Below the pieces are notes generated by a model. It was not told the DNA's origin. It ran no database searches and worked only from the letters and a program-made list of their open reading frames with translations. This document shows, piece by piece, positions 19,142 through 49,968 of a DNA stretch of 64,000 nt (its first letter is position 1; every line of letters begins with the position of its first letter). Source of the stretch: a virus; IMG/VR virus record IMGVR_UViG_3300032431_000006, positions 1 to 64,000 of that record; one strand, 5' to 3'. A program made the position numbers and the translations under genes.

Positions 19142-19993
19142 ATGGCTATCATACCACACAATTTCAATGGCAAGGCGATCGGGCAAACATCTTCAGAGAC
19201 CGTGCTTAACGGCGTTAAAATCCCCAAAGGGTATGTCAATCTTAGTCAGATGTGCAAAGCAGGTGGCAAGAAGTTAAACGACTACTTAACGAAAGATAAG
19301 AAGCGCTTATCTTATTTTCACGCTGTCTTGAGAATTTTAGAGGCTGGAACCTATAGCCCGTCAGATGCGACTATACTCGCTTCTGACAACCATGCGGGTT
19401 GTAGCGATTGCCTAGCTTTTGGAATCACATCAGGGTTACTTATCAATCCGGGTAATGCCATCGGAGGTAAATCGGATTTATACGGACATCCACAAATCGC
19501 GATCTCGGTAGCAAGTTGGATTAGCTCGGAGTTTGAAGCGTGGGCGGGTTACACACTGCTATTAGTCCTCAGTGGGGAATTTAAGGCTCTTACCGATGAA
19601 GCTAAACAGGCAGAAAAGGAGCTACAGATAAGATGGGAAAAGATCCGATCGGCAACAATATTTACCCGCCGCGAACTTACCGACTCAATTAAAGCTTGGT
19701 ACGATCGCCCCGACACCCAGACGAATCTACCACTAGGAAAAATAATTGCCCAATGCACCAATCAACTCTATCTAGCCATGTGGGGAGTTACCGCAGCGCA
19801 AATCCGATCGCACTTCAATCTAACCAAAGATTCCCAATTGACCCGCGATTACCTCTCGGAACGCGCTTTAGACAAGCTAAAACTCCGTGAAGACTACGTG
19901 ATTGAGTTTATCGACTTTGAGGGTGCTATTCCCCACGAAAACGCCGTGCAGATGGCAAACATTGTCCGCTGCCGCGTTCACTTCACAGATTAA
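19142..19993 (+). CDS. KilA-N domain protein (paralog family B)
   Basis: N-terminus GYVNLSQMCKAGGKKLNDYL is KilA-N-like; C-terminus WYDRP...CTNQLYLAMWGVTAAQIRSHF is shared with 32607..33392; conserved leader upstream. Confidence 0.8.
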   Translation: MAIIPHNFNGKAIGQTSSETVLNGVKIPKGYVNLSQMCKAGGKKLNDYLTKDKKRLSYFHAVLRILEAGTYSPSDATILASDNHAGCSDCLAFGITSGLLINPGNAIGGKSDLYGHPQIAISVASWISSEFEAWAGYTLLLVLSGEFKALTDEAKQAEKELQIRWEKIRSATIFTRRELTDSIKAWYDRPDTQTNLPLGKIIAQCTNQLYLAMWGVTAAQIRSHFNLTKDSQLTRDYLSERALDKLKLREDYVIEFIDFEGAIPHENAVQMANIVRCRVHFTD

Positions 19994-22773: not shown

Positions 22774-22782
22774 AGTATACCA
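22774..22782 (-). promoter_or_regulatory. promoter (TGGTATACT)
   Basis: Minus strand reads TGATGGTATACTATAATAAGAACA. Confidence 0.65.
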
Positions 22783-23943: not shown

Positions 23944-23978
23944 GATCGCTTCGATTTAATCGCCTCGATTTAATCGCG

Positions 23979-24513: not shown

Positions 24514-24536
24514 AATTCCCAACACTGGGATTAATC
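24514..24536. repeat. hairpin motif copy 17
   Basis: aattcccaacactgggattaatc; contains the minus-strand stop 24531-24533. Confidence 0.9.
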
Positions 24537-25256
24537 TGTCAAGTTGTCAAAGTAGGCTTCGATCGCCAAATCCAAGTCCTCATTAACTAAGTAGACATTT
24601 ATTTTCCGAATAGTTCCATTGCAGAGTCGGTCTTCTCTCTTTTTGTTTAGGTCTAGTTTGGCGATCGCCATGCCCAAACTGACTCGCTTCTCTACTACCA
24701 GTCCTACGGGATAACCTAACTGCTCAGCACGTTCAGCAACACCACACCAACCCTCGCTATTTTCAGCTTTGAGCGCGGGTTGACCGACTCCTAGCATATC
24801 TAGCGCTAAATCCTGCAAACCCTGCTGAAATCGCGGGTTAGTTAGGTCTATCTTGAGGCGATCGAGCGCGGTTATCAGATTATTTAACCGGATGTCAGAG
24901 GGCGGTAGTTGGGGTTGCTGCGGGGCGATCGAGACAGTCCCGGTCGTCATCAGGGCTTTAATTTGCTGCGATACCCAAACTCGGAATTTGACATTGCACC
25001 ACGCCGCAAAGTCGATCGCCACTTCCTCAATTGCCCACGTCCCCTGACTAGCGGGGATGCCGCCTTGCACGGTTTCCGTTACGGGAAATCCCGTAACGCT
25101 CTCCATCTCTGCTAAAAACTCAACAGTAGCGCCAAGCCTGGTATAGTCATTAACTTTTTTTCCCGTCGCCTTAGCCATATCAGAAAGCGAAACCCACACC
25201 CGATCGCCCCGCTTCTCAAACCGGATCTTCTTACCACCAAAATCTAAATCTGTCAT
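24531..25256 (-). CDS. KilA-N domain protein (paralog family C)
   Basis: DFGGKKIRFEKRGDRVWVSLSDMAKATGKKVNDY...GTWAIEEVAIDFAAWCNVKFRVWV is KilA-N-like; stop TAA lies in the hairpin motif. Confidence 0.8.
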   Translation of the reverse strand: MTDLDFGGKKIRFEKRGDRVWVSLSDMAKATGKKVNDYTRLGATVEFLAEMESVTGFPVTETVQGGIPASQGTWAIEEVAIDFAAWCNVKFRVWVSQQIKALMTTGTVSIAPQQPQLPPSDIRLNNLITALDRLKIDLTNPRFQQGLQDLALDMLGVGQPALKAENSEGWCGVAERAEQLGYPVGLVVEKRVSLGMAIAKLDLNKKREDRLCNGTIRKINVYLVNEDLDLAIEAYFDNLTD

Positions 25257-27491: not shown

Positions 27492-27500
27492 ATTATACCA
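27492..27500 (-). promoter_or_regulatory. promoter (TGGTATAAT)
   Basis: Upstream of the SF2 helicase gene. Confidence 0.6.
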
Positions 27501-27831: not shown

Positions 27832-30800
27832 CTAGGAAGGCTCAGGAGGCAACCAATATAAGTCATCGCAAGCAATTAGCCACACCACGCCCTCGATCGT
27901 CACGCTAAAGCCTTCTCCTTCACAATCTATTAGCAATGCAGGCTCGATTTTAGGGCGATCGAGACTATTTGTTCGTACCCATACAGTTAAAAAATCACAA
28001 TCATCAGATTTATGCGAGTCCTCACCACCATTGACTCCTAGTGACTCGATCGCCCCGATCGCCCTCTCTGCAACCGTTTCACCCGTTAGCGAAGCCCTCG
28101 CAGAGGATCGCCCGCCGTTTTGTCCAAAAATGGGGCTATCGGGTGTATTTGTCGAATGATTATCATTTGTTTGTATATATATAGCAGGATCTTCGACTCC
28201 TGCTATAGTATGCCTTTGAAGCCCTTTGTAACGCTCAAAATCTATTGTTTCCGTTTGAGGTATATTACCATCATTAGAAGAAATCGGAACCTGTACGCTG
28301 TCCGGGTTTGGAGTTAACGGGCGCTGAATTTGGGGTAAATCTGAGATGTCTGCACCGAGTTTGAGTTGGAATCGGCGATCGACATATTGGATCAACTCTT
28401 CAAAATTGGCTGTGTGTGAGTGGGCGCGATCGTAATGATAGAAATTGACCCGCGCCCCTTCTACGCCTATAGTATGTACGGGTAGCCGTACTTGACGCTT
28501 TACGGGTTTAATGCCAAACATCGGCATGAGTATGCGGTTGATAAAATGCAAATTAGTAGCATCGCCGGGGTGTCCGGTAATTCGGGAAACGGTTTTATGC
28601 GATCGGATCTTGCCGATCAAATTCAGCACATCTTCAGACTGATCTGAGTAGCGATGCCCATCAGCCAATAGCTTAGGAAATCCCAAACGGTTTAAGGCTT
28701 CTATAATTACCCATCGATCGCCGATCCTGTCAGGTACGAAAAAATCTATGTCTTCTTTCCCCGCCCATTTTTGAGCTTGTAAAGCCTTAGACTCTTCTGG
28801 ATGAGTCAATAGCCAGAACATCTCAAGAGAGCTTGTTAAATCGCGTTCTGCATACCTCAGACGGTGAATAAGGTCGGCAGTCCACAAAAGAGAATCTTGC
28901 AAACCAGGAAATCGGTAGAGAATTTTGTATTTAAGAACGCTGCAACGTTCTATCCAAGTCGAGTCTATTTTTTTGCCGATCGCTTCGGCCTCTGAATCGG
29001 TAAGGTCGGGCGCGTTAAAAATCTGAGTGCATTCTACAATCTGTACTTCTAGCTTAGCAGTGCGATAGGCTTCTGAGTCTATCTCATAAGCCTCTACACG
29101 CTGCGGGGTCATGCCCATCGACTCAAAAGCAAGATATAGAAATTCTCGATAGTTGCGAGTTTCCAAATAGGAAATAGCCTGCATTTTTGCCCAGGCTTGT
29201 ACATGAGGACTGTCAAGTTGCGCGCGCAAAGTCGCCATAACTTTGTCCCCGATCGTACTTTCTGGAAACAAACCAGCTTCTGCTGTAATCCGCACTGCCA
29301 AATCTTCCATCAGCACCTGCTCAAACGCGCCCGCATTCCGTTTATGGTCGATCCCTACTTTGGGAGCGTATACAATAATCCGACCGGGATTCCTCACCCG
29401 TCGCGACATCTGCACGGCTTCATTTATTCCCACAACTCCGACAAACCAGCAAAACAGAGTATCAAACTTGCTGACTTTTTCAATAGACACACCGCTTTCT
29501 ACAGTGGGAGTGCATACCGCCCAATTAACGCGATCGGGATTAGCGTCAATATAATCGTCAGGCGCTCTCAGAAAGTCCCGAACCCATTTTTCGGTAACAG
29601 TTTTGCTAGTAATAAGTATGCCCTCACCTTTGAGTTTTCTCAATTGTTCTGCAATCGCTTCAGCCTTGATAATCGAGTCAACAACGATCGCGGGTAAAGC
29701 ACTCTCTAAAATTTGAAGATTAAGCCATTCCTCAGCCTTGCGTTTTGTAATAGTATTGTCATCTACAAAAAAGATCGGCGGGGTTTCCCGATCGCTAGTA
29801 TTTTCGTACAAATCGATCGTCTTTGTCGGGTCGATCGCCGCGACATAATCCACCATCCAGTCTGACATATTACCATCCATAAGTATTAGTCGGGCGCATA
29901 CCCTAACAATATACTCGAATCGAGTGATAATATCGAGACGCTTGCCTCGGAGTGTAGAGCTAGTTAGTAAATGTTTGATAGCCGTCATGGTTTCATCAAT
30001 CACCACGGTCGCGCCGTCAAAAATCTCGATCGGCAGTTTCAATAAACTATCAAAGCATAGGGCGACCCGTAGGTTGGGATCTTTGAAGCGCCCATAAGCA
30101 CTATGTATGTCAAGATGATCAAAATCCCATCTTTCACAAAGTTGCTCTTGTAAAGAATTCCTGTGTCCGATCGACACCATAACGCCGTCTGCCTCAGCTT
30201 TTTTAATAATCTTGCCGTTAATTTTGAAGGGTTTAACTTTACTAACAACATCACCAAACCATTGAGACTTACCTGAGTTGAGGTTAGATTTAACTATTGT
30301 GATGCTGTTTGCTTGCGGTTCTAAGGCTGCAAAAAAGCGATTGTGTGTCTTTTGACCTTTCTCATCAAAGCGTCTGTATTCGCGCCACATCCGTGTTTGC
30401 TCCATACTTTGCGCCGATCGCGAATCAGTCAAAGCTTTCTCTATGTCCGCAATCGCACCCGCTGCGAGATAATCATCGGCCCCTTTATAGGGGCCCGGTA
30501 AATTACAAATCTTGACGGTCGCTTTTTTGAATTGTCTGCTGAGTATGGCTGAGGCTTTAAATTCAACTGTCGCCTCAAAATCCTGATCAGGACGGCGATC
30601 GAACATTATATAAACCGTGCGACCGGGTTGGTCAAATTCTTTTAGCTCTTCCCGGATCAACCGCTCTTTAGTATTTCCCGATTCATCCCGAATCGCCTTA
30701 AACCCGGTAAATATACCAGGCAAACTTATCGCAGGTATTCCAGCACAAATTAACGCGGCCGCTTTTTTCTCGCCTTCTGTTATTACCACAGGCAAAAAAT

Positions 30801-31245
30801 AAGTTAAGACCCATTGCCAGTAAGTTAATGCGATCGGCTTAGGGATATTAAATCTTGCCTCAGCTAACTCGATCGCCCTTTGGGAAGGTGCAATAAATGT
30901 AATCGGGGTCGGCTTATCCGATGCGGCCATGTACCGCCGCGCGCTGCCATCACTATTTTTAAAAGGTGATCCGCCTAAGTGTCTAATTCTACCATTGCAG
31001 ATCCAGCCTGTAAAATCTTGCACCTTATATAGGCTTCTCATCCACGGTGCAGAAACTCCAAAACCGCCCTGCAACTTGCGCGCTTTGTCGCCGTACACAA
31101 AATCAAAAGCGTCTACGCCCGTTATAGGGGAAAAGTTTAAAGCTTGCGTCTCAGTGTCGATCGCGCTTGCATCTAAATCTTTCTTAATCAGTGCTAATAA
31201 TCTTGGGGTAGTATCTAGCTTGACATACTCAATAAAATCTGCCAT
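27832..31245 (-). CDS. Toprim-domain primase / P-loop helicase fusion
   Basis: 1137 aa; VITEGEKKAAALICAGIPAISLPG plus an acidic FD..D block (Toprim / DUF3854-like), then P-loop-like NSGKS and a helicase-sized central region. Confidence 0.7.
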   Translation of the reverse strand: MADFIEYVKLDTTPRLLALIKKDLDASAIDTETQALNFSPITGVDAFDFVYGDKARKLQGGFGVSAPWMRSLYKVQDFTGWICNGRIRHLGGSPFKNSDGSARRYMAASDKPTPITFIAPSQRAIELAEARFNIPKPIALTYWQWVLTYFLPVVITEGEKKAAALICAGIPAISLPGIFTGFKAIRDESGNTKERLIREELKEFDQPGRTVYIMFDRRPDQDFEATVEFKASAILSRQFKKATVKICNLPGPYKGADDYLAAGAIADIEKALTDSRSAQSMEQTRMWREYRRFDEKGQKTHNRFFAALEPQANSITIVKSNLNSGKSQWFGDVVSKVKPFKINGKIIKKAEADGVMVSIGHRNSLQEQLCERWDFDHLDIHSAYGRFKDPNLRVALCFDSLLKLPIEIFDGATVVIDETMTAIKHLLTSSTLRGKRLDIITRFEYIVRVCARLILMDGNMSDWMVDYVAAIDPTKTIDLYENTSDRETPPIFFVDDNTITKRKAEEWLNLQILESALPAIVVDSIIKAEAIAEQLRKLKGEGILITSKTVTEKWVRDFLRAPDDYIDANPDRVNWAVCTPTVESGVSIEKVSKFDTLFCWFVGVVGINEAVQMSRRVRNPGRIIVYAPKVGIDHKRNAGAFEQVLMEDLAVRITAEAGLFPESTIGDKVMATLRAQLDSPHVQAWAKMQAISYLETRNYREFLYLAFESMGMTPQRVEAYEIDSEAYRTAKLEVQIVECTQIFNAPDLTDSEAEAIGKKIDSTWIERCSVLKYKILYRFPGLQDSLLWTADLIHRLRYAERDLTSSLEMFWLLTHPEESKALQAQKWAGKEDIDFFVPDRIGDRWVIIEALNRLGFPKLLADGHRYSDQSEDVLNLIGKIRSHKTVSRITGHPGDATNLHFINRILMPMFGIKPVKRQVRLPVHTIGVEGARVNFYHYDRAHSHTANFEELIQYVDRRFQLKLGADISDLPQIQRPLTPNPDSVQVPISSNDGNIPQTETIDFERYKGLQRHTIAGVEDPAIYIQTNDNHSTNTPDSPIFGQNGGRSSARASLTGETVAERAIGAIESLGVNGGEDSHKSDDCDFLTVWVRTNSLDRPKIEPALLIDCEGEGFSVTIEGVVWLIACDDLYWLPPEPS
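28085..28113 (+). repeat. 29-nt dispersed repeat inside the primase-helicase CDS
   Basis: gttagcgaagccctcgcagaggatcgccc. Confidence 0.8.
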
Positions 31246-31443: not shown

Positions 31444-31452
31444 ACTATACCA
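31444..31452 (-). promoter_or_regulatory. promoter (TGGTATAGT)
   Basis: Far upstream of the primase-helicase gene; implies a 5' UTR of about 190 nt. Confidence 0.5.
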
Positions 31453-31490
31453 TAGCATGAGACAAAACCCGGACGTTCGCTTCGATTTAA

Positions 31491-31565
31491 TCGCCTCGAC
31501 TCGATCGCCTCGACTCGATCGCCCCGACTCGATCGCCTCGACTCGATCGCCCCGACTCGATCGCC
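31491..31565 (+). repeat. 14-15 bp tandem repeat TCGCCYCGACTCGA, about 5 units
   Basis: Read directly, immediately upstream of E5. Confidence 0.85.
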
Positions 31566-34024: not shown

Positions 34025-34327
34025 CTATTCGGTGTCGGTTGGCTCTTCAGTGTCGATATAGGTAAGGTCGGGCGCGATCGAGCCGTTCAGAATGCCCTCT
34101 CTGAGAGCTTGAGGCGTGATGCCCATTCTTTCTGCGAGTAGGGCTAACATCTCTCCCCGTTTGCCTTCACGCTCCCCTAGTTTAGAGCATAACAGAGATC
34201 CTGCCTCTTCTGGTAGCGATCGCCCTTTAAGCCAAGCTTCGATAGCCAGCATATACAGATAGTAGGGCGGTAGGTTGACATAGTACCGCCCGTGTTTGTT
34301 TGGGGCGATCGGGATTACTTTACTCAT
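34025..34327 (-). CDS. putative ribbon-helix-helix-like DNA-binding protein
   Basis: 100 aa from ATG 34327 (GGAG upstream); RYYVNLPPYYLYMLAIEAWLKGRSLPEEAGSLL fits a strand-helix-helix pattern; divergent from an HTH gene. Confidence 0.45.
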   Translation of the reverse strand: MSKVIPIAPNKHGRYYVNLPPYYLYMLAIEAWLKGRSLPEEAGSLLCSKLGEREGKRGEMLALLAERMGITPQALREGILNGSIAPDLTYIDTEEPTDTE

Positions 34328-34365
34328 TTTGGCTCCGAGATTAATTGGTATTTGTGCGGACATCT

Positions 34366-35664: not shown

Positions 35665-36378
35665 ATGGTTAAGGCAAAATCGACTAGCAAAAGCTCAAAA
35701 ATACCGGGATTAAATGCTGAGGATAGTTATGCAACCGGGCTAACTCTTAAAGTTCCTGTTACCAATGCCCAATATGCTGAGGTAGGCAATCTAACACCCG
35801 CAAAGGTTCGAGCTTTAAACATTAAGAAAGAGAATGCAAAATTACAGGTAGAGTGGGCCCGCGAATGGTTTGAGGCTGTTAAGGAATTAGAGGGAGCCAG
35901 AAAAGAAATAGAGGAAATTCGATCTAATATCGAAAAGTTACATTTCAAGACTGAGAAAGAAATTGACGAATACGTTTTAGCGTCGCTATTAGCTAAGGCG
36001 GCTTATGAAGAACATTTTAGGGAGTGGACAGCGCGAAAAACTGAAGAGTTAGGTCTGTTAACAAAAGTCACCGATGATGAGATCCGCGCGGTTAGTGCTG
36101 AATTTGCAGACAGAGTGCGGGTGTGGAAAGCGAAAACCGATCAACGTATTGCCGACAGTAGCGAAAAATCCGAGGCCTCGATCGCGCAATTTGGGAGGAA
36201 AAAAGACAACGGACAAGCGCAACGGGATGCTGAGGCTAGAGCGCGTTTAAAAGCTTTCACAAGTGGGAAGCCGATGGAATATGTCAATGCGATCGGATCA
36301 GAAAGTTCTGGTAATGGTTACACCCAAAATAGGGGGCAAAATTCATTGCTTGATAAATTATTCACTTTTGGCAATTAA
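35665..36378 (+). CDS. coiled-coil protein
   Basis: 237 aa, Glu/Lys/Ala-rich with heptad-like sequence. Confidence 0.65.
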   Translation: MVKAKSTSKSSKIPGLNAEDSYATGLTLKVPVTNAQYAEVGNLTPAKVRALNIKKENAKLQVEWAREWFEAVKELEGARKEIEEIRSNIEKLHFKTEKEIDEYVLASLLAKAAYEEHFREWTARKTEELGLLTKVTDDEIRAVSAEFADRVRVWKAKTDQRIADSSEKSEASIAQFGRKKDNGQAQRDAEARARLKAFTSGKPMEYVNAIGSESSGNGYTQNRGQNSLLDKLFTFGN

Positions 36379-36390
36379 TAGGACTAACTA

Positions 36391-36939
36391 ATGTTTGAAG
36401 TAGAGCAATATCAATATCAAAGCAATCGAGAGGTAAATGATCCTATCGAAGTGCAGGCAATAGAAGATTATGAGCAATTGCAGCGCGATTTCTCGCACTC
36501 GGAGAATCGCAAGAAATCCGAGGAAACTGTGAGGAATAGAAAGCTAAGTTTATACGATCGCATGGATTCACAATGGATAGTATTAGTTGAAATCGGCTTC
36601 ACTATTTCCACATTGTTAGGAACGGGGACGGCTATTTGCTTAATGAGGGTGTTTGGTGCAGGGTTTCTGGCAACAGGCGTAGCGTTAAGCGCGGTAGCAA
36701 GTGCTTTAGCGCTTATGGTGTGTTGTTGGAGGGAGCTAAACCATTCTGAATACAAATTAAGAGTATTTGTGATGTTGATTGCAATGACCGCGGGTTTAAT
36801 TGTTTCTATGTCTGACGCGGGGCTTGATTGGGGACGGGATAATTGGCGGGTATTAGCAACTACTTCGATACTTTTTACCACATCGGTTGTAGTTGTTTTA
36901 GGTTTAATCATTGCATCTAAAGGAATTAGTCGCGAATAA
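36391..36939 (+). CDS. integral membrane protein (about 4 TM segments)
   Basis: 182 aa with four long hydrophobic stretches after a polar N-terminus. Confidence 0.65.
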   Translation: MFEVEQYQYQSNREVNDPIEVQAIEDYEQLQRDFSHSENRKKSEETVRNRKLSLYDRMDSQWIVLVEIGFTISTLLGTGTAICLMRVFGAGFLATGVALSAVASALALMVCCWRELNHSEYKLRVFVMLIAMTAGLIVSMSDAGLDWGRDNWRVLATTSILFTTSVVVVLGLIIASKGISRE

Positions 36940-36990
36940 ATGCTAATAGTTTGCGATCGCACTGAGTGCGATCTCAGGCTGGCTGGCAAG

Positions 36991-37012
36991 GTTAATCCCA
37001 GTGTTGGGAATT
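36991..37012. repeat. hairpin motif copy 25
   Basis: gttaatcccagtgttgggaatt. Confidence 0.9.
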
Positions 37013-37041
37013 GAGAAAAACAAATAAAGGAAAATATCATC

Positions 37042-38937
37042 ATGAGCCGGAATCAGAAAGCAACATTAATGACAAGCGGATTTTATGGATTGGCATTGAT
37101 CCTCGGTTTATGGGGTGCTATACTCCAGCCTGAGACGCGGATCACGGGGACTATAGACAGTAAGCTGATTGATATTCCCGTCTGGCAACAAAAAGATCCA
37201 AAATATCAAAAAATCAAAGACGCAAAAGTGACTCAGGGTTGGGGCGGTTTACGGTTGTTAGTTTGGGCGGTTGGGGCGGCCGCGGGTATAACGGGGGTCA
37301 CATTATCAGCAGAGCGGCGATCGGAACTAGAAAGAGAAAGGATCGAATATGAACGCAATTGCCGCGAGGCTGATACTCAAGCCGACATTCAAGCCAGCTA
37401 TAACTTGAGTTTGCAGCGGGCTAAACTGCAAAAGCAAGGTGAAGCTCAGATGGCTTTATTTGAGGATAGCTTAGTAGAAGAGGTAGACGATATCCGCGCG
37501 GCTAACGGCTGGTTTGCGCCCGAACCGGAACCCAAACCAGCGATCGCACCCGCAGCACCTATACTGCAAAATACTGCTTTTGCAGGCATGAAAACACCAG
37601 AACAATATCAAGCTGAGATAGAGGCCGCGGCTGAGGGTGCAAAGTCAAGACTAAGAGAAGACGGAATTAATGGGGCTGAGGTTCCCGACGATCGCAAAAA
37701 ATTCTATCAAGATAACGGCGACAAAATTATGCGATCGCTCGCAGCGCTGCGGATGTCTATTCTGTCAGCCGCGCCTACAGGTGGCGGCAAAACCCACACC
37801 CTGTACCGCTGGTTAGGCGACTTGCAGACACTGTATCCGCAGGCTGAAGTCTATGTTATTGCCCACAAAAGAGATTCTTTTTTAGGTTTACTAGATCAAG
37901 GTAGAGTCACGATTTTTGACGATCTCAATCCAGAACCATCAATGGCTTATCTGGATAAAGTTTATTCTGAGATGAAGCGGAGACTAAATACCCCAGAGAG
38001 CGATCGGAAAAAGTTTGAAAAATTGCCTATTCGATTAATTCTTGATGATTGGTTTGCAAGTTTTGGAGTCCTGAGATTGTATCCGGCAATATGGAATATC
38101 ATCAAGACAAAAATCGCTGCGATTATCACTAAAGGACGCGAAGCTAACGTTTGTGTCTACATAGCAACACAGAGCTTTAATTTAGACGCTTTGGGCATTC
38201 AAGACAGCAATATCCGAGGCAACTTAGCCATAAGCTGCCAAGGCTTAGTAACCGAGCAAATAGACGTGAACGGCGATCTAGTTGAGCAAGGTAATTATGA
38301 GAGCTTGCAGCTACTGATTAACAATAGTTATATAGTGGCATCGAAGTTAGATCGCGATCGGCTGAATACTGAACTTGAGGAATTGGTTAAACTCTCAAGA
38401 CTCCATCAATTGCCTGCTATATTCTCTGCTGTTGGCAAACCTGTCCTGGCACTCGCTCCCTACTATCAGAAGCCTACAAATACGCCAGTTGCTGATAGTA
38501 AAGAAGATGAGGAAATAGCAAGGGAATTAAGGCAATTAAAAGCACACTTTGAGACGATCGAGCCAAGTGATACTCAGTCTCAGTCTCGGTCTGAGATTCC
38601 CACAGGAAACACCCCAAACAACGACAGCATCGACATCCCAGCGAGTGAGATTCCCCAAAGTGAGAGTGAGATTCCAGAGACTGAGAGCCAATTAAACCCA
38701 GAACTTGAGGGCTGGTATAAGTGGTTGCCTAGCAAAGCAGAAGTGATAAAATTGCTCGAAGATACCGACGGGGGGATTTACAATTTCACAAGTTTTATCA
38801 GGGCCAAACTAAAGAAAACAGAGACCGAGTATCACAAGAAAAGCAAAAATGCGGTAGTCGAGTTGCTGTTAACTTTAGAGCGATTTGACCTCATAACAAA
38901 ATACAAGATAGACACCACAAAATATCCGATCGAATAA
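37042..38937 (+). CDS. membrane-anchored FtsK/SpoIIIE-like P-loop ATPase
   Basis: N-terminal TM segments; AAPTGGGKTHT Walker A; RLILDDWF Walker B; KGREANVCVYIATQSFN block resembles the FtsK motor; last 78 aa shared with the next gene. Confidence 0.7.
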   Translation: MSRNQKATLMTSGFYGLALILGLWGAILQPETRITGTIDSKLIDIPVWQQKDPKYQKIKDAKVTQGWGGLRLLVWAVGAAAGITGVTLSAERRSELERERIEYERNCREADTQADIQASYNLSLQRAKLQKQGEAQMALFEDSLVEEVDDIRAANGWFAPEPEPKPAIAPAAPILQNTAFAGMKTPEQYQAEIEAAAEGAKSRLREDGINGAEVPDDRKKFYQDNGDKIMRSLAALRMSILSAAPTGGGKTHTLYRWLGDLQTLYPQAEVYVIAHKRDSFLGLLDQGRVTIFDDLNPEPSMAYLDKVYSEMKRRLNTPESDRKKFEKLPIRLILDDWFASFGVLRLYPAIWNIIKTKIAAIITKGREANVCVYIATQSFNLDALGIQDSNIRGNLAISCQGLVTEQIDVNGDLVEQGNYESLQLLINNSYIVASKLDRDRLNTELEELVKLSRLHQLPAIFSAVGKPVLALAPYYQKPTNTPVADSKEDEEIARELRQLKAHFETIEPSDTQSQSRSEIPTGNTPNNDSIDIPASEIPQSESEIPETESQLNPELEGWYKWLPSKAEVIKLLEDTDGGIYNFTSFIRAKLKKTETEYHKKSKNAVVELLLTLERFDLITKYKIDTTKYPIE

Positions 38938-38950
38938 CTCCGGATCTGTA

Positions 38951-38995
38951 GGCTGTCCCTGGTATATTATAATATAAAACATACCAGAGACAGCC
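38951..38995 (+). promoter_or_regulatory. inverted-repeat-embedded promoter
   Basis: GGCTGTCCCTGGTAT-attataatataaaac-ATACCAGAGACAGCC; 15-bp arms with 1 mismatch; TATAAT 38968-38973; the ATG follows at 38996. Confidence 0.55.
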
Positions 38996-39637
38996 ATGAA
39001 CGGATCGGTTTATATTCTGAAGATTGAAGGACAAAATGCCTACAAAATAGGTATGACGATTATTGGGTTGGCAGACAGGATCAGGGATTTACAAACGGGA
39101 TGTCCTTACAAGATTGTTGCAGTATTTCATGGTCAAGTAGAGGATGAATCGAGTTTAGAGCGATACTTGCACACACTTTTTTGCGAAAAAAAAATAAGAG
39201 GTGAATGGTTTTGCTTGTCAGAACTAGAGTTAAGTGAAGCCATCCAAGTCATTCAAGAGAATCAACTCTGTTTTTGTTTGAATAAAGCGAGTAAAAGTAA
39301 CTACGATTCAATAGATTTTGCCGTCACGAATACACGGCAAAACACGAAAAAGAGAGAAGAGCAAGCAAAAACTACACGTATTTTGTTTCTGGAAAGTGAG
39401 TTGACAAATTGGTACAAGTGGCTCCCAAGTAAAGCAGAAGTCTTGTTAATGATGGAGGACTTAGATGCAGGATTCTGCAACTTTACTTACTTAGTGAAAC
39501 ACAAGCTAAAGAAAACCGAGGCATTCTACAACCGCAAAGCTAAAGGCGCGATCGTTCGCTTGTTACTTGATTCAAATCGTACCGACTTGATGCAAAAGTT
39601 TCAAATAGACCCGGCACAATTCCCGTTCTTAGACTAA
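38996..39637 (+). CDS. T5orf172 (GIY-YIG-like) domain protein
   Basis: VYILKIEGQNAYKIGMT...RIRDLQTGCPYKI...LERYLHTLF...RGEWF matches the T5orf172 pattern; C-terminal 78 aa homologous to the ATPase C-terminus. Confidence 0.7.
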   Translation: MNGSVYILKIEGQNAYKIGMTIIGLADRIRDLQTGCPYKIVAVFHGQVEDESSLERYLHTLFCEKKIRGEWFCLSELELSEAIQVIQENQLCFCLNKASKSNYDSIDFAVTNTRQNTKKREEQAKTTRILFLESELTNWYKWLPSKAEVLLMMEDLDAGFCNFTYLVKHKLKKTEAFYNRKAKGAIVRLLLDSNRTDLMQKFQIDPAQFPFLD

Positions 39638-39641
39638 ACAA

Positions 39642-39676
39642 ACCCGGACGGATTTTAATTAAAAACCGTCCGGTTT
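39642..39676 (+). terminator. terminator-like hairpin
   Basis: CCGGACGG..CCGTCCGG, then TTTG. Confidence 0.55.
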
Positions 39677-39692
39677 GCAACCCGATCGCGAG

Positions 39693-39698
39693 TATAAT
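39693..39698 (+). promoter_or_regulatory. -10 TATAAT
   Basis: gagTATAATgt, after terminator 39642-39676. Confidence 0.45.
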
Positions 39699-39750
39699 GT
39701 ACTATATCAATACTTGCGATCGCCCTTTAAAACCTTTACCCAATACCAAA

Positions 39751-40077
39751 ATGGCAACCAAAAAACCATCAGAACCGGGCCCGCTAGAGAAGGCTTTAAG
39801 AGTGAATAGTAATGCCGATCGCGCTGCCAAACGTGCCACAGAAAATAAAAGCGAACCGCTTACCTTCAGCTTACCCGAAGCTTTTTTTTACACTCAACAA
39901 TCAAAACACAAGTATGGTACTTGCTGGCAGTGCGGCGATCCCAGAAATCATGCAGGCGGTATACCAGGCGGATCGGATGCCTATTGGTGCGATCGCTGCA
40001 AAGACTGGCTACCCGTTAGAGAGTGCCGATCCGATCCGGCAAAAGTGTCGATTCAGGTCGGGAAGTCGCGGGTATAG
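39751..40077 (+). CDS. zinc-ribbon protein
   Basis: CWQCG...CDRC. Start moved to ATG 39751 because the track start overlaps TATAAT 39693-39698. Confidence 0.5.
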   Translation: MATKKPSEPGPLEKALRVNSNADRAAKRATENKSEPLTFSLPEAFFYTQQSKHKYGTCWQCGDPRNHAGGIPGGSDAYWCDRCKDWLPVRECRSDPAKVSIQVGKSRV

Positions 40078-43489: not shown

Positions 43490-43498
43490 TGGTATACT
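43490..43498 (+). promoter_or_regulatory. promoter (TGgTATACT)
   Basis: Upstream box TCCCGGAC. Confidence 0.6.
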
Positions 43499-43527: not shown

Positions 43528-44571
43528 ATGGCAATCAAAACAGAAACAGGCGTTATTAATAGCAAGGCTTTAGCTAAGCAGGTCGTCAGTTGGGGTAAAA
43601 AGGGGATCGATGTTTCAAACTGCCGGGATGCTGAGGAAATGTTAGCAAAATCTGGCTTAGACTGGCACGTCGCCTTACAGGAAATCAGGACGGCTGACGG
43701 CACTCCCACACCCTGGAAACAATCGGTTAAAATCGATCCTGATGGTACTCAGACACCGCTCTCGATCGTGCCTGTGAAAAATTGGGAACCGCTCTCAAAT
43801 CACACTTTTTTAAACCGGGCGATCGGAGTTGCCGAAAGTTTTGGGGGTAGTGTATCGCGCGTTGGTTGGCTAAAAAAAGATACCGCCGCGGTAAATCAGC
43901 AGAGTTTTCTATGGGCAACTATATCGCCCGGTGAACTTGCGATCGAGTTGGGGCTTGACAAATACGAGGGTATCACTCCCAATATTCTCTTAAGCTCAGG
44001 GACTAGCTACGGGTGCGGGTATTCTTGCAAGATGCTATTAGTCCGCAACTGTTGCCAGAATGGTATGGTCGATCGACAATCGACTAGCCTAAAAAGCACA
44101 CATCAGACTAATGTAGCTTTTGAAAATTTCACTTTTGAACAAGTGCGCGACTCTATCAATTTGTACAAAATAGAGCGCGACCTATTACTCAATACTCAGA
44201 TAGCAGCCGATCGCGTTTATACCATGTTTATACACACTTTTGGGCATGAAGCTAAACTCAATCAGCCGATCGACAGACAGCCTCGCAAGGTGCAACTGCT
44301 ATGGGATATCTACAATGGAGAGGCCGATCGCACTTTTGAAGATGTCGGGATCGATTTAGGGCAAGCTCGGATCAGAGGTACTTACTACGGCGTTTTGCAG
44401 GCTGTTGTTGCGTACAATAATCATTTTGGAGAGTCTAGCGGCGACAATAAAATGATGGAAATTATGAACGCCGAACGCGGCAAGGAAATAGACAAGATTC
44501 GCGCTAGCCTGACAGCAGCGGCCGCTAAGCGCGTTAAAGAAACCGTATCGGTCGGTGTCCGTGCCTGGTAA
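43528..44571 (+). CDS. DUF932-like phage/plasmid protein
   Basis: N-terminal ...MLAKSGLDWHVALQEI... and overall size resemble the DUF932 / TIGR03299 family (from memory). Confidence 0.6.
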   Translation: MAIKTETGVINSKALAKQVVSWGKKGIDVSNCRDAEEMLAKSGLDWHVALQEIRTADGTPTPWKQSVKIDPDGTQTPLSIVPVKNWEPLSNHTFLNRAIGVAESFGGSVSRVGWLKKDTAAVNQQSFLWATISPGELAIELGLDKYEGITPNILLSSGTSYGCGYSCKMLLVRNCCQNGMVDRQSTSLKSTHQTNVAFENFTFEQVRDSINLYKIERDLLLNTQIAADRVYTMFIHTFGHEAKLNQPIDRQPRKVQLLWDIYNGEADRTFEDVGIDLGQARIRGTYYGVLQAVVAYNNHFGESSGDNKMMEIMNAERGKEIDKIRASLTAAAAKRVKETVSVGVRAW

Positions 44572-44582
44572 ATAATCCCCTA

Positions 44583-44604
44583 TTTCCCAACACTGGGATT
44601 AACC
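44583..44604. repeat. hairpin motif copy 29
   Basis: tttcccaacactgggattaacc. Confidence 0.9.
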
Positions 44605-44632
44605 GTCGCTACTCAAAAGCGGCGGTTTTTTG
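44602..44632 (+). terminator. rho-independent terminator
   Basis: CCGTCGCTactcaaaAGCGGCGGTTTTTTG. Confidence 0.75.
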
Positions 44633-44648
44633 TGGCGGGCGATCGCGC

Positions 44649-44679
44649 TTTGGGGGTGTCAATTTATTGACACCCCAAA
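44649..44679. repeat. G/C-clamped hairpin 1
   Basis: TTTGGGGG-TGTCAATTTATTGACA-CCCCAAA. Confidence 0.85.
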
Positions 44680-44703
44680 CGGGCGATCGGTAGCAAGTTT
44701 TGG

Positions 44704-44727
44704 GGTCTATGCAGATCCGCATAGACC
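44704..44727. repeat. GATC-loop hairpin H1
   Basis: GGTCTATGC-agatcc-GCATAGACC. Confidence 0.8.
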
Positions 44728-44750
44728 AAACATCAGGTCGCCCGATCGCG

Positions 44751-44788
44751 CTTAAAGTAAATACTGGGATCGCAGTATTTACTTTAAG
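44751..44788. repeat. GATC-loop hairpin H2
   Basis: CTTAAAGTAAATACTG-ggatcg-CAGTATTTACTTTAAG; 16-bp stem. Confidence 0.85.
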
Positions 44789-44807
44789 CTGATGCCGATC
44801 GCCCGCC

Positions 44808-44926
44808 GTCACACAATGGGGTAAAAAGTCATAGGACATTCACTGTATTTTATAATATATAGCGTCCTGTGACTAACCCAAACCTATACACTGTAACGAT
44901 TTTACCCCAATATCAAAACAGGTCGG
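44808..44926 (+). repeat. composite element E7
   Basis: GTCACACAATGGGGTAAAAAGTCATAGGACA...TATAAT...CCTGTGAC plus the conserved tail. Confidence 0.9.
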
Positions 44927-44936
44927 GCGATCGGGC

Positions 44937-44973
44937 TTTGGGGGGGGTGTGAATAAATGCACACCCCCCAAAA
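44937..44973. repeat. G/C-clamped hairpin 2
   Basis: TTTGGGGGGGG-TGTGAATAAATGCACA-CCCCCCAAAA. Confidence 0.85.
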
Positions 44974-44995
44974 CGGGCGATCGGGCTTTGGGCTA

Positions 44996-45145
44996 AGTCA
45001 AGTTTTCTTGACTCAGGTCGGTCTTGAAGCTGCCGTGCATTTATTCACATCAGGTCGCGCCGATCGCCCGCCGCGACCTGATGTCAATTTTCTGACATCA
45101 GGTCGCGCTTGAAGCTGGTACAAGAAAACTTGTATCAGGTCGCGC
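44996..45145 (+). repeat. array of short palindromes, each followed by ATCAGGTCGCG
   Basis: AGTCAAGTTTTCTTGACTCAGGTCGG / GTGCATTTATTCACATCAGGTCGCG / TGTCAATTTTCTGACATCAGGTCGCG / GTACAAGAAAACTTGTATCAGGTCGCG; TTGAAGCTG linkers. Confidence 0.8.
45048..45107. repeat. three-arm alternative hairpin
   Basis: ACATCAGGTCGCG (45048-45060), CGCGACCTGATGT (45072-45084), ACATCAGGTCGCG (45094-45106); the middle arm can pair with either neighbour. Confidence 0.8.
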
Positions 45146-45152
45146 TTAAGAC

Positions 45153-45174
45153 CATTATGCAGATTCCCATAATG
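45153..45174. repeat. hairpin related to H5
   Basis: CATTATG-cagattcc-CATAATG. Confidence 0.65.
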
Positions 45175-45300
45175 CTGTCTAACGCGCCGATCGCCCGCTA
45201 AAAAAGCCACCACTCGAACGCATTGATGTTTAAGGTTCTCAGTCATTTTGTGGGCATTTTACCACCACCTAAGAAAGCCGTCACCCGCCGATCGCCCGCC

Positions 45301-45419
45301 GTCAGATAATGGGGTAAAAAGTCATAGGACAAACGATATATTTTATAATATATACCCTTCTGTGACTAACCTAAACCTATACGCTGTAACGGTTTTACCC
45401 CAATTTCAAAACAGGTCGG
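45301..45419 (+). repeat. composite element E8
   Basis: GTCAGATAATGGGGTAAAAAGTCATAGGACA...TATAAT...TTCTGTGAC plus the conserved tail. Confidence 0.9.
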
Positions 45420-45432
45420 GCGATCGGGCTTT

Positions 45433-45462
45433 GGGGGGGTACAAGTTTTCTTGTACCCCCCC
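45433..45462. repeat. G/C-clamped hairpin 3
   Basis: GGGGGGG-TACAAGTTTTCTTGTA-CCCCCCC; perfect 13-bp stem. Confidence 0.9.
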
Positions 45463-45483
45463 GTCAATGGGCGATCGCCCACT

Positions 45484-45533
45484 AAAAAATACTTTCTAAA
45501 CCGTCCGGTTTTGTCGATATGTTATGGTATAAT
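45484..45533 (+). promoter_or_regulatory. promoter (TGgTATAAT) with an upstream box
   Basis: AAAAAATACTTTCTAAACCGTCCGGTTTTGTCGATATGTTATGGTATAAT. Confidence 0.65.
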
Positions 45534-45559
45534 ATAGAGACAGTTTAGCGAGTGACATT

Positions 45560-45916
45560 ATGACTGGTATCACGGGTTTGGATTTTGGTGGTAAGAAGAT
45601 CCGGTTTGAGAAGCGGGGCGATCGAGTGTGGGTTAGCTTGACCGATATGGCTAAGGCGACGGGTAAGTTGGTCGGCAACTGGAACCAGCTAGACGGTACG
45701 ATTAAGTACCTGAGCAAGCTTGAAGCCGTTATTGGAATCCCAATAACGGAAATAAATCAAGGCGGCATCCCTGAGAAACAAGGAACATGGGCAATTAAGC
45801 AGGTCGCAATCAAATCGGTTTTCCGACACCCCCCCCAAATCCCGATCGCGCTCAAAGATTCTTTTAAACCGTCCGGTTTTGTCGCCGTACTATGGTATAA
45901 TATAGAGATAGTTTAG
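45560..45916 (+). CDS. truncated KilA-N paralog (family C), possibly a pseudogene
   Basis: First 85 aa or so parallel 45928..46626; the frame then runs into the next promoter (AVLWYNIEIV translates TATGGTATAATATAGAG). Confidence 0.45.
   Translation: MTGITGLDFGGKKIRFEKRGDRVWVSLTDMAKATGKLVGNWNQLDGTIKYLSKLEAVIGIPITEINQGGIPEKQGTWAIKQVAIKSVFRHPPQIPIALKDSFKPSGFVAVLWYNIEIV
45857..45901 (+). promoter_or_regulatory. promoter (TGgTATAAT) with an upstream box
   Basis: GATTCTTTTAAACCGTCCGGTTTTGTCGCCGTACTATGGTATAAT. Confidence 0.65.
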
Positions 45917-45927
45917 CTAGTGACATC

Positions 45928-46626
45928 ATGACAGATTTAGATTTTGGTGGTAAGAAGATCCGGTTTGAGAAGCGGGGCGATCGGGTTTGGGTTTCGCTTT
46001 CTGATATGGCGGCGGCAACAGGCAAACAAGTTTACGGATACACTCGCAATAAAGAGACAAAAGAATTTCTGGCTGAGATGGAGAGCGTTACGCAAATTTG
46101 CGTAACGGAAACCGTGCAAGGCGGCATTCCTGCTAGTCAGGGAACATGGGCGATCGAGGAAGTGGCGATCGACTTCGCGGCGTGGTGCAATGTCAAATTC
46201 CGAGTTTGGGTATCTCAACAAATTAAAACCCTGATGATGACGACCGGGACTGTCACGATCGCCCCGCCCGATCGCCCTTGTTGGATCGAGGACTCTGCTA
46301 ATCCGTGGGTAGCGTTTTTTGACAAGGATTTTTGCGATCGGGTGTTTGGCTGGTACGGGGCACAGTTTTATTGGCAATTCGTGTACAAGGTATTAACGCC
46401 GGAAGAGGCTGCTAAAGTCAATCGGCTTAATCCGCCAGTTGCGGGTGTAAGGGCCCAGCGAATCCACCAATACCTAACACCGGAAGCAAAGACGCGCTTA
46501 ACTCCCTATATTGGGGTGCTAGTTGGCATGGTGTACGGCGCGCGATGCCGTGAGGACTTCCGGCTAGGCTATGCGGACAAGTTTGGAGGTAACGACCAAA
46601 AACGGATACCCGGATTTGATAAGTAA
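45928..46626 (+). CDS. KilA-N domain protein (paralog family C)
   Basis: N-terminal 100 aa nearly identical to 24531..25256. Confidence 0.8.
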   Translation: MTDLDFGGKKIRFEKRGDRVWVSLSDMAAATGKQVYGYTRNKETKEFLAEMESVTQICVTETVQGGIPASQGTWAIEEVAIDFAAWCNVKFRVWVSQQIKTLMMTTGTVTIAPPDRPCWIEDSANPWVAFFDKDFCDRVFGWYGAQFYWQFVYKVLTPEEAAKVNRLNPPVAGVRAQRIHQYLTPEAKTRLTPYIGVLVGMVYGARCREDFRLGYADKFGGNDQKRIPGFDK

Positions 46627-49959: not shown

Positions 49960-49968
49960 ACTATACCA
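49960..49968 (-). promoter_or_regulatory. promoter (TGGTATAGT)
   Basis: Minus strand reads ACTATGGTATAGTATAATAGC. Confidence 0.6.

Follow-up and report, generated by a model that had tools for sequence, protein, structure and literature searches.

The stretch analysed here, called the window, is positions 1 to 64,000 of the virus record IMGVR_UViG_3300032431_000006, a tailed-phage genome. Its central subject is a gene for a T5orf172 nuclease-like protein, which follows directly on a gene for a membrane-anchored ATPase and whose product ends in the same small domain (the module) as the ATPase. Comparison with related phage loci showed that the nuclease-like gene belongs to a cassette that has been gained, lost and swapped between sibling phages, and that the breakpoints of the cassette lie at promoter/stem-loop units and at the module domain boundary. 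We think it probable that the gene is a homing-endonuclease-like, selfish or competitive optional cassette with a borrowed targeting domain, and not a fixed partner of the phage's own ATPase.

The ATPase and the nuclease-like protein share a private C-terminal domain

The two genes and the two copies of the module were located as follows.

37042-38937, plus strand: membrane-anchored FtsK/TcpA-like P-loop ATPase of 631 amino acids (aa), from the open reading frame (ORF), an AlphaFold model and Foldseek
38701-38934, plus strand: module A, the four-helix C-terminus of the ATPase, from BLASTP against the nuclease C-terminus and AlphaFold
38996-39637, plus strand: T5orf172 (GIY-YIG superfamily) nuclease-like protein of 213 aa, from the ORF and Pfam
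39398-39634, plus strand: module B, the C-terminus of the nuclease-like protein (aa 135-213), 53% identical to module A

The nuclease-like protein consists of a catalytic domain (aa 3-90), a linker (aa ~91-134) and the module. Its assignment to T5orf172, which the earlier note had made from the letters of the sequence, was confirmed by Pfam matches to MUG113 (PF13455; 1.1e-15, 58.3 bits, cut-off 22.3) and T5orf172 (PF10544; 2.7e-08, 34.7 bits, cut-off 20), and the nucleases of three related loci (L010, L013 and L018) also scored above the cut-offs. The motifs VYI..YKIG.T..R..LQTG.P..E..LH..F..GEWF are kept in all six proteins found at this position. We take Y..Y, R and the E of GEWF to be the catalytic-type residues. 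Wherever the context could be read, a T5orf172 protein with the module was encoded directly downstream of the ATPase.

BLASTP aligned the ATPase with the nuclease-like protein over 111 aa at 44% identity (E-value 1e-27), and within the ~80-aa module the identity rises to 51-53%, far above what chance would give; the homologous segments were exactly those that the earlier note had delimited. The module (~75-78 aa) was modelled by AlphaFold with a mean confidence (pLDDT) of 85 as four helices (12-21, 29-36, 42-58 and 62-67) and zero strands, and the full-length model of the ATPase contains identical helices for module A. Foldseek searches of the module against PDB and BFVD returned nothing below E=1.9 (best PDB match, E 4.4). 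A winged-helix, FtsK-gamma or TraB-type fold, the first two of which the earlier note had put forward as candidates, was rejected since the model is all-alpha and found no structural or profile match. For the same reason (no match in PDB, BFVD or Pfam) the module is a new domain family of ~75 aa.

To find out how widely the module occurs, a profile of both window copies was searched against 1.84 billion representative proteins at E<=1e-3. It matched 15 proteins, of which the ten strongest all belong to this phage lineage (ATPase orthologues, T5orf172 proteins of 188-213 aa and short solo proteins). Nine were placed there by locus or by ATPase orthology, and the tenth is a fragment on an uninformative 1-kb contig. 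The other five, one of them matching at E 5e-12, are repetitive proteins hit in multiple stretches and were taken as spurious. Apart from these five the module was not found outside the lineage, so a promiscuous domain was rejected and the description of the module as private was upheld. Neither the module alone nor the nuclease yielded a homologue in word-index searches, which gave at most the query. Within the lineage the module occurs in three contexts: in the ATPase, in T5orf172 proteins, and in solo genes located just downstream of the ATPase.

The nuclease-like gene occupies a variable slot

Metagenomes yielded roughly twelve sibling genomes, 56-66 kb in size, and 12 loci with a common backbone were compared. 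The order of this backbone is a coiled-coil gene, a transmembrane (TM) gene, the ATPase-module gene, a variable slot and a Zn-ribbon gene, followed, where the contig extends further, by a Dam methylase, a ~700-aa protein and DUF932. Two features mark the right-hand side of the slot.

39641-39676, plus strand: palindrome with 21-nt arms, 90% complementary, probably a terminator-like stem-loop
39697-40077, plus strand: zinc-ribbon-like protein (CxxC...CxxC) of 126 aa, the first backbone gene past the slot in 12 of 12 loci

The slot contents fell into four classes; Pfam matches served as confirmation, and L007 was assigned by motif only.

T5orf172-module gene only: window, L003, L010 and L013 (4 loci)
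T5orf172-module gene plus solo module gene: L018 and L022 (2 loci)
Solo module gene only: L019, L020, L021 and L007 (4 loci)
Empty: L005 and L009 (2 loci)

Five other distinct genomes thus have, at this position, the pairing of ATPase and T5orf172-module genes that the earlier note had singled out. L005 and L009, both near relatives, have an intact ATPase gene and no nuclease gene. L005 corresponds to the window minus 38979-39666, and the junction of this type of empty site reads …GAATAACGTCCGGTTTGCAACC…. In L009 the ATPase runs straight into an orthologue of window module B and its 3' flank: window positions 39398-40073 are colinear with L009 4880-5573 at 83% DNA identity. L010 represents a third type of boundary, in which the 3' end of the ATPase gene and the first ~50 nuclease codons are 90% identical to the window and are followed by a different C-terminal half of the nuclease.

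The edges of the cassette coincide with TCCGG elements, which are part of a predicted promoter (see below). The palindrome at 39641-39676 marks the right edge, and its 3' arm holds the TCCGG of the next promoter. A counterpart is located after the ATPase module in L009. In L005 just the right half of the palindrome remains, and it lies precisely at the junction of the empty site. Mosaic structure is also seen in the ATPase gene, at its own domain boundaries (P0005 versus P0001).

A second slot with the same pattern was noticed upstream. The 111-aa ORF at 34025-34363 (minus strand) of the window matches the C-terminal domain of 205-aa T5orf172 proteins encoded at the equivalent position in two relatives (L018:871-1488 and L019:490-1107; 40% identity, E 1e-14). 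Here too the T5orf172 domain is present or absent before a small domain.

A hairpin with a predicted promoter abuts the start of the nuclease-like gene

Two overlapping elements were recognized in the gap that separates the ATPase and nuclease genes.

38939-38968, plus strand: predicted promoter of the T5orf172 gene, from motif enrichment and conservation
38951-38995, plus strand: hairpin around the -10 element of the promoter, from the inverted repeat and RNA folding

The predicted promoter has a -35-like TCCGG at 38939-38943 and, 16 nt on, an extended -10-like TGGTATATT at 38960-38968. The arms of the hairpin (38951-38971 and 38975-38995) are 21 nt long and 86% complementary, the 3' arm ends one base before the ATG at 38996, and TGGTATATT is located at the top of the 5' arm, beside the loop. 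The RNA fold has a free energy of -26.6 kcal/mol (z -6.3). The earlier note had described an inverted repeat with a promoter, ending at an ATG. Such a repeat exists, with the 21-nt arms given above, before the T5orf172 gene, the second gene of the pair; at 36391, the start of the TM-protein gene, which is the second of the four genes, there is none.

A strong hairpin occupies this intergenic position in all six loci with a T5orf172 gene (-20 to -29 kcal/mol, z -2.6 to -6.7). Its stems differ in sequence from locus to locus, and the extended -10 element TG-n-TATAnT is kept inside (TGGTATAnT in five loci, TGCTATATT in L018). In an alignment of the hairpins made without regard to structure, four of the eight consensus pairs showed compensatory changes. 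The arrangement of TCCGG and extended -10 element precedes every T5orf172 gene of the relatives, and their solo-module genes carry the same promoter-in-hairpin unit.

The motif is not confined to this locus. TGGTATANT occurs 22 times in the window (2.1 copies expected), about 14 of the copies have TCCGG 15-16 nt upstream, and most are intergenic and face a downstream gene in the non-structural region at 18-50 kb. TCCGG-N15-16-TGGTATAnT is therefore predicted to be the general promoter of the phage. Since the -35-like element is unlike TTGACA, the motif suggests that a dedicated sigma factor or activator may be involved. When the 22 promoter sites were folded, the nuclease site gave the strongest structure (-31.6 kcal/mol versus -6 to -23 kcal/mol) and was the sole strong hairpin. 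Examples of these promoter-like sites are those at 22774-22782 (-), 27492-27500 (-), 31444-31452 (-), 43490-43498 (+), 45893-45901 (+) and 49960-49968 (-).

The position of the hairpin suggests a mode of control. Messenger RNA reading through from the ATPase operon would fold the hairpin and stay untranslated, whereas transcripts begun inside the hairpin would be translated.

The location of the gene amid densely spaced promoters could also fit a domesticated, non-cutting T5orf172 protein that acts as a DNA-binding regulator, for example as a repressor of nearby promoters, the duplication of the module being a by-product of local recombination. Domesticated regulators derived from T5orf172 or homing endonucleases are reported from a phage satellite (PMC8096241). 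However, the catalytic-type motifs are fully kept in six divergent copies, and presence/absence and mosaic boundaries like those found here are typical of active selfish nucleases (PMC10448857). We regard domestication as very unlikely.

The ATPase is FtsK-like by fold

The N-terminus of the ATPase contains two TM helices (aa 9-28 and 70-90), after which a long helix extends up to aa ~155. The motor core (aa ~216-475, nt 37687-38466) carries the Walker A motif AAPTGGGKT (nt 37768-37794) and the Walker B motif RLILDDW (nt 38032-38052). It is followed by a disordered, acidic/polar linker (aa ~476-552) and by the module as a small helical C-terminal domain. The linker is the region of the ATPase that varies most in length among orthologues, and in the window it contains a 21-bp tandem duplication (38643-38687) encoding a repeated SEIP(Q/E)(S/T)E peptide.

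Twenty full-length orthologues were available, and the AlphaFold model was built on 21 orthologues; its core (aa ~220-475) had a pLDDT of ~90. Searches of Pfam, NCBIfam, PHROG and PDB sequences gave no match to FtsK_SpoIIIE or any other family beyond the Walker A loop, where all matches were below threshold (e.g. T2SSE, 0.014). In contrast to these family models, Foldseek matched the core to TcpA of pCW3 (6o1w, 1.9e-5), the FtsK motor (2iut, 2.3e-5) and EccC (4nh0, 2.5e-5), and the top matches to TcpA, FtsK and EccC ranged from E 2e-5 to 2e-4 with probability 1.00. Of the earlier description as an FtsK/SpoIIIE-type motor the fold was therefore retained and the family membership was not: the modelled structure supports the name FtsK-like by fold only, since structures match and family models do not.

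Proteins 28-43% identical to the ATPase core are encoded in PLSDB by 30 plasmids, each of them from a filamentous cyanobacterium (Nostoc, Oscillatoria, Tolypothrix, Leptolyngbya, Calothrix and others). These homologues lack the module and have other small domains at the end, after a P/Q/E-rich linker. Some were named type IV coupling protein (T4CP) by PGAP, but neither they nor the ATPase matched a T4CP model of Pfam or NCBIfam. The ~50 ORFs of the window that were scanned, a subset of its ORFs, included neither a relaxase nor VirB4. The plasmid genes are often close to CyRepA1 and ParM genes. The occurrence of ATPase-core homologues on plasmids of filamentous cyanobacteria may recall, by analogy, the FtsK-like TraB of mycelial Streptomyces.

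Searches for known systems gave little. PADLOC and PHROGs yielded only domain-level matches for the T5orf172 protein (PDC-S57 and PD-Lambda-1 in PADLOC) and a weak PADLOC match of the ATPase to mad8 (E 0.0015); a described system that pairs these two proteins is not known.

Exchange of modules between ATPase and nuclease genes, and lack of co-variation

A tree built from 26 modules contained two sister pairs that joined modules from different contexts: the nuclease module of the window with the ATPase module of L009 (78% identity), and the nuclease module of L018 with the ATPase module of L022 (65%). For the first pair the ratio of nonsynonymous to synonymous substitution rates (dN/dS) was 0.10, indicating purifying selection. 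This topology indicates at least two transfers of a module between an ATPase gene and a nuclease gene, and, because of the sister pairs and the low dN/dS, the domain is judged functional in both contexts and interchangeable. A recent tandem duplication was rejected as the origin of the two window copies, as their DNA has no identical run of more than 11 nt and synonymous sites are saturated.

The two copies carried by one genome, that of the ATPase and that encoded downstream, are only 19-53% identical and show no co-variation. An example is the comparison of L010 with the window, in which the ATPase modules are 99% and the nuclease modules 21% identical.

These results bear on the proposal of the earlier note that membrane pump and nuclease form a two-component machine. 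According to this explanation the shared module would direct both proteins to one DNA site or partner, for superinfection exclusion or for the destruction or export of competing DNA. It would account for the constant position of the nuclease directly downstream of the ATPase in six of six genomes having it, for the absence of the module elsewhere among the 1.84 billion representatives, for purifying selection on both module copies, and for the fold of the ATPase, which is of the kind seen in DNA translocases and coupling proteins. Against it, the nuclease is dispensable (lacking in L005 and L009, and replaced by solo modules in four other loci), the modules do not co-vary, the nuclease has its own promoter with a hairpin predicted to uncouple its expression from the ATPase operon, and the matches to defence systems are limited to those listed above. 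An obligate machine working on one shared target is disfavoured on three grounds: close relatives do without the nuclease, its expression is predicted to be separate, and its module does not co-vary with that of the ATPase. We consider the two-arm arrangement improbable.

To a more elaborate scheme we give a low probability, though not quite as low. The module would be the DNA-recognition domain of a TraB/FtsK-like DNA translocase carried by phages or plasmids, existing in many specificity alleles, and the nucleases would match the ATPase alleles of rival phages, never the phage's own, and cut the recognition sites of the rivals' translocases. Acidic solo modules would be decoys or immunity factors in such allele-specific, 'non-self' warfare or homing between phages.

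Possible function of the module and of the cassette

In the explanation that we favour, that of an optional homing-like cassette, the module would be the targeting domain of both proteins, with DNA more likely than protein as the target. The nuclease would have taken over the targeting domain of the ATPase, as ICP1 Odn took the DNA-binding domain of PLE RepA, and would use it to cut related genomes, for homing or for competition. DNA was put somewhat ahead of protein for two reasons: the nuclease needs a DNA-binding domain and its 213 aa offer no other candidate, and FtsK and TraB have DNA-recognition domains at the equivalent position.

Several observations weigh against this explanation. Cutting, homing and DNA binding by the T5orf172 protein are predictions from its sequence. 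Profile searches of the module against PDB and Pfam gave nothing significant, neither a helix-turn-helix (HTH) nor a winged helix. The isoelectric point (pI) of the module ranges from 4.1 to 9.6 and several copies are acidic, which fits protein binding at least as well as DNA binding. A scan with the sigma-70 consensus did not call the promoter in the hairpin, so its assignment had to be made by motif enrichment and conservation. An extra module-bearing gene stands beside the ATPase in 10 of 12 genomes, which could reflect real partnership as opposed to hitch-hiking. Finally, the sample consists of ~13 distinct loci, all of them metagenomic.

The acidic copies raise the alternative that the module is a protein-protein interaction or oligomerisation domain, by which the downstream proteins would attach to the ATPase hexamer, or to a partner that they have in common with it, and serve as adaptors, regulators or decoys, the nuclease domain being recruited cargo. 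The modules of the solo clade have a pI of 4.1-4.3 and have lost the basic patch KLKKT..Y.RKAK, which is kept in the main clade; solo-module genes occupy the slot in 6 of the 12 loci, four of them without any nuclease; and the module matches no DNA-binding fold. Moreover, coupling proteins such as TraD bind accessory proteins via their C-terminal tails. On the other hand, surface residues of the module are poorly kept between clades and the invariant positions are mainly core hydrophobics. GIY-YIG-type homing nucleases normally need a DNA-binding domain, and no other candidate is present in the 213 aa. The plasmid relatives of the ATPase also have small helical C-terminal domains, with weak HTH-like matches. 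Docking is judged unlikely, though less so than the other alternatives.

Genes upstream of the ATPase

The four consecutive plus-strand genes of the earlier note were all found as described. The two that precede the ATPase are the following.

35665-36378, plus strand: charged protein of 237 aa, probably a coiled coil, first gene of the block, from the ORF (32% charged residues, no TM segment)
36391-36939, plus strand: integral membrane protein of 182 aa with 3-4 TM segments (hydrophobic stretches at aa ~80-114, 121-145 and 152-180)

The 237-aa protein had no match in Pfam, NCBIfam, PHROG or PADLOC, and a gene of the same size stands at its position in every related phage locus. All Pfam matches of the 182-aa protein were below threshold. 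Conservation of a three-gene block on the plasmids was considered and rejected: sequence similarity is confined to the ATPase core, the coiled-coil and TM genes agree in size and position only, and BLASTP found no similarity between the 237-aa protein and the equally placed plasmid gene. In three relatives a gene for a 168-aa PNK3P/HAD-type phosphatase, which the window does not have, is inserted between the TM-protein and ATPase genes (L003:9432-9938, L020:4435-4941 and L021:4430-4936).

The phage genome and its host

The phage genome is roughly 66 kb. Among the structural genes of the window are those for a T4-type large terminase, a Mu-type portal, a prohead protease, a major capsid protein and a minor tail (tape-measure-type) protein; the non-structural genes include those for a 1137-aa DUF3854 CyRepA-like replication protein, a helicase, Dam and C5 methylases, KilA-N, Bro-N and DUF932. 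No relatives at the DNA level were found in phage or plasmid collections. HIP1 sites (GCGATCGC) are abundant across the window, and because of this ubiquity the sequence points to a cyanobacterial host. One sibling genome was binned in a metagenome-assembled genome labelled 'uncultured cyanobacterium'.

Several repeat regions were noted. Tandem 14-bp iterons (ATCGCCTCGACTCG, 5.4 copies) at 31490-31565, just upstream of the CyRepA-like gene (27832-31245, minus strand), probably mark the replication origin, and a related 14-mer is present in 2.4 copies at 23945-23977. The segment 20531-21066 contains dense non-coding repeats between ORFs (a 10-bp unit in 3.6 copies, the 7-bp GATTTTA in 13 and the 16-bp TACCTTAGCCATGCCA in 10.9) and could be a centromere-like, packaging or binding-site array. 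At 44571-45928 an ORF-poor region of 1.3 kb has dispersed repeats (ACATCAGGTCGC in 3-4 copies and CGGGCGATCGGGCTTTGGGGG in 3). Clustered short repeats were considered as a clt- or KOPS-like target and rejected; the arrays are located elsewhere in the window and have no tie to the module. Three KilA-N genes are present (19142-19993, 24531-25256 and 45928-46626), and a KilA-N gene start with its promoter unit is tandemly duplicated (45494-45811 versus 45862-46170, 74-87% identity).

Comparison with known systems

The closest parallel to the nuclease-like protein is Odn (Gp88) of phage ICP1, a chimeric, origin-directed T5orf172 nuclease. It cuts the RepA site, and its second domain has 42% identity with the DNA-binding domain (RepA_N) of PLE RepA (PMC8263062). 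In both cases a T5orf172 nuclease is fused to a domain ~40-50% identical to that of a non-nuclease protein. Odn is thought to derive from homing-endonuclease genes, and shuffling of domains in the donor protein is evident (PMC8263062). The borrowed domain of Odn is N-terminal, has known DNA-binding activity and comes from a parasite of the phage, whereas the domain described here is C-terminal, is shared with the neighbouring ATPase of the phage itself and has a putative role in targeting.

The free-standing GIY-YIG homing genes of T4 offer a second parallel: I-TevI, mobE and segB have a hairpin that sequesters the ribosome-binding site together with an internal late promoter (PMC3014915). Like these genes, the gene of the window is optional, stands between conserved genes, has its start codon next to a hairpin that also holds a promoter, and encodes an N-terminal catalytic domain, a linker and a C-terminal domain, here a putative targeting domain. 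It differs from them in belonging to the T5orf172 subfamily, in its TCCGG-N15-16-TGGTATAnT promoter, in its cyanobacterial host and in that its C-terminal domain is homologous to part of the product of the adjacent gene; homing here is a prediction.

The breakpoints resemble those of the PeSL promoter/stem-loop cassettes, which mediate gene shuffling in T4-type phages (PMC2839356, PMC4122927): conserved promoter and stem-loop units flank variable genes and coincide with the breakpoints of insertion, deletion and replacement. Unlike PeSL, the units described here belong to an unrelated phage lineage, have another motif sequence and appear to gate translation of the nuclease. A location at boundaries of recombination or genetic exchange has also been described for T5orf172 genes (PMC10448857).

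The ATPase shares with TcpA of pCW3, TraB of Streptomyces and FtsK an N-terminal membrane anchor, a linker, an FtsK-type motor fold, and a second, flexible linker to a small C-terminal domain, and has relatives on plasmids. It differs in lacking a Pfam FtsK_SpoIIIE or T4CP match, in having an all-helical C-terminus in place of a winged helix, and in its carrier, a tailed phage with its own terminase, in which no relaxase, clt or KOPS-like site was identified.

Taken singly, a T5orf172 homing-like gene, control by a hairpin and promoter, promoter-mediated cassette shuffling and an FtsK-like ATPase are of known kinds. What is new is the domain family, the fact that a membrane motor and a nuclease share and exchange it, the survival of intermediates, and the finding that a tailed cyanophage encodes an ATPase of this type. 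With ICP1 Odn as the first case, the locus would be an independent second one in which a T5orf172 nuclease has an address domain from another protein, here a neighbouring motor, and its natural intermediates survive as the empty site, the solo domain, the fused domain and the domain returned to the ATPase. The locus also yields a domain family of ~75 aa, a predicted phage promoter motif and a predicted, conserved promoter-in-hairpin switch, and it draws attention to an unstudied membrane FtsK/TcpA-like ATPase common to a tailed-phage lineage and to plasmids of filamentous cyanobacteria. Should the module prove allele-specific in its recognition of DNA, the locus would provide a compact model for the way in which selfish nucleases gain and change specificity.

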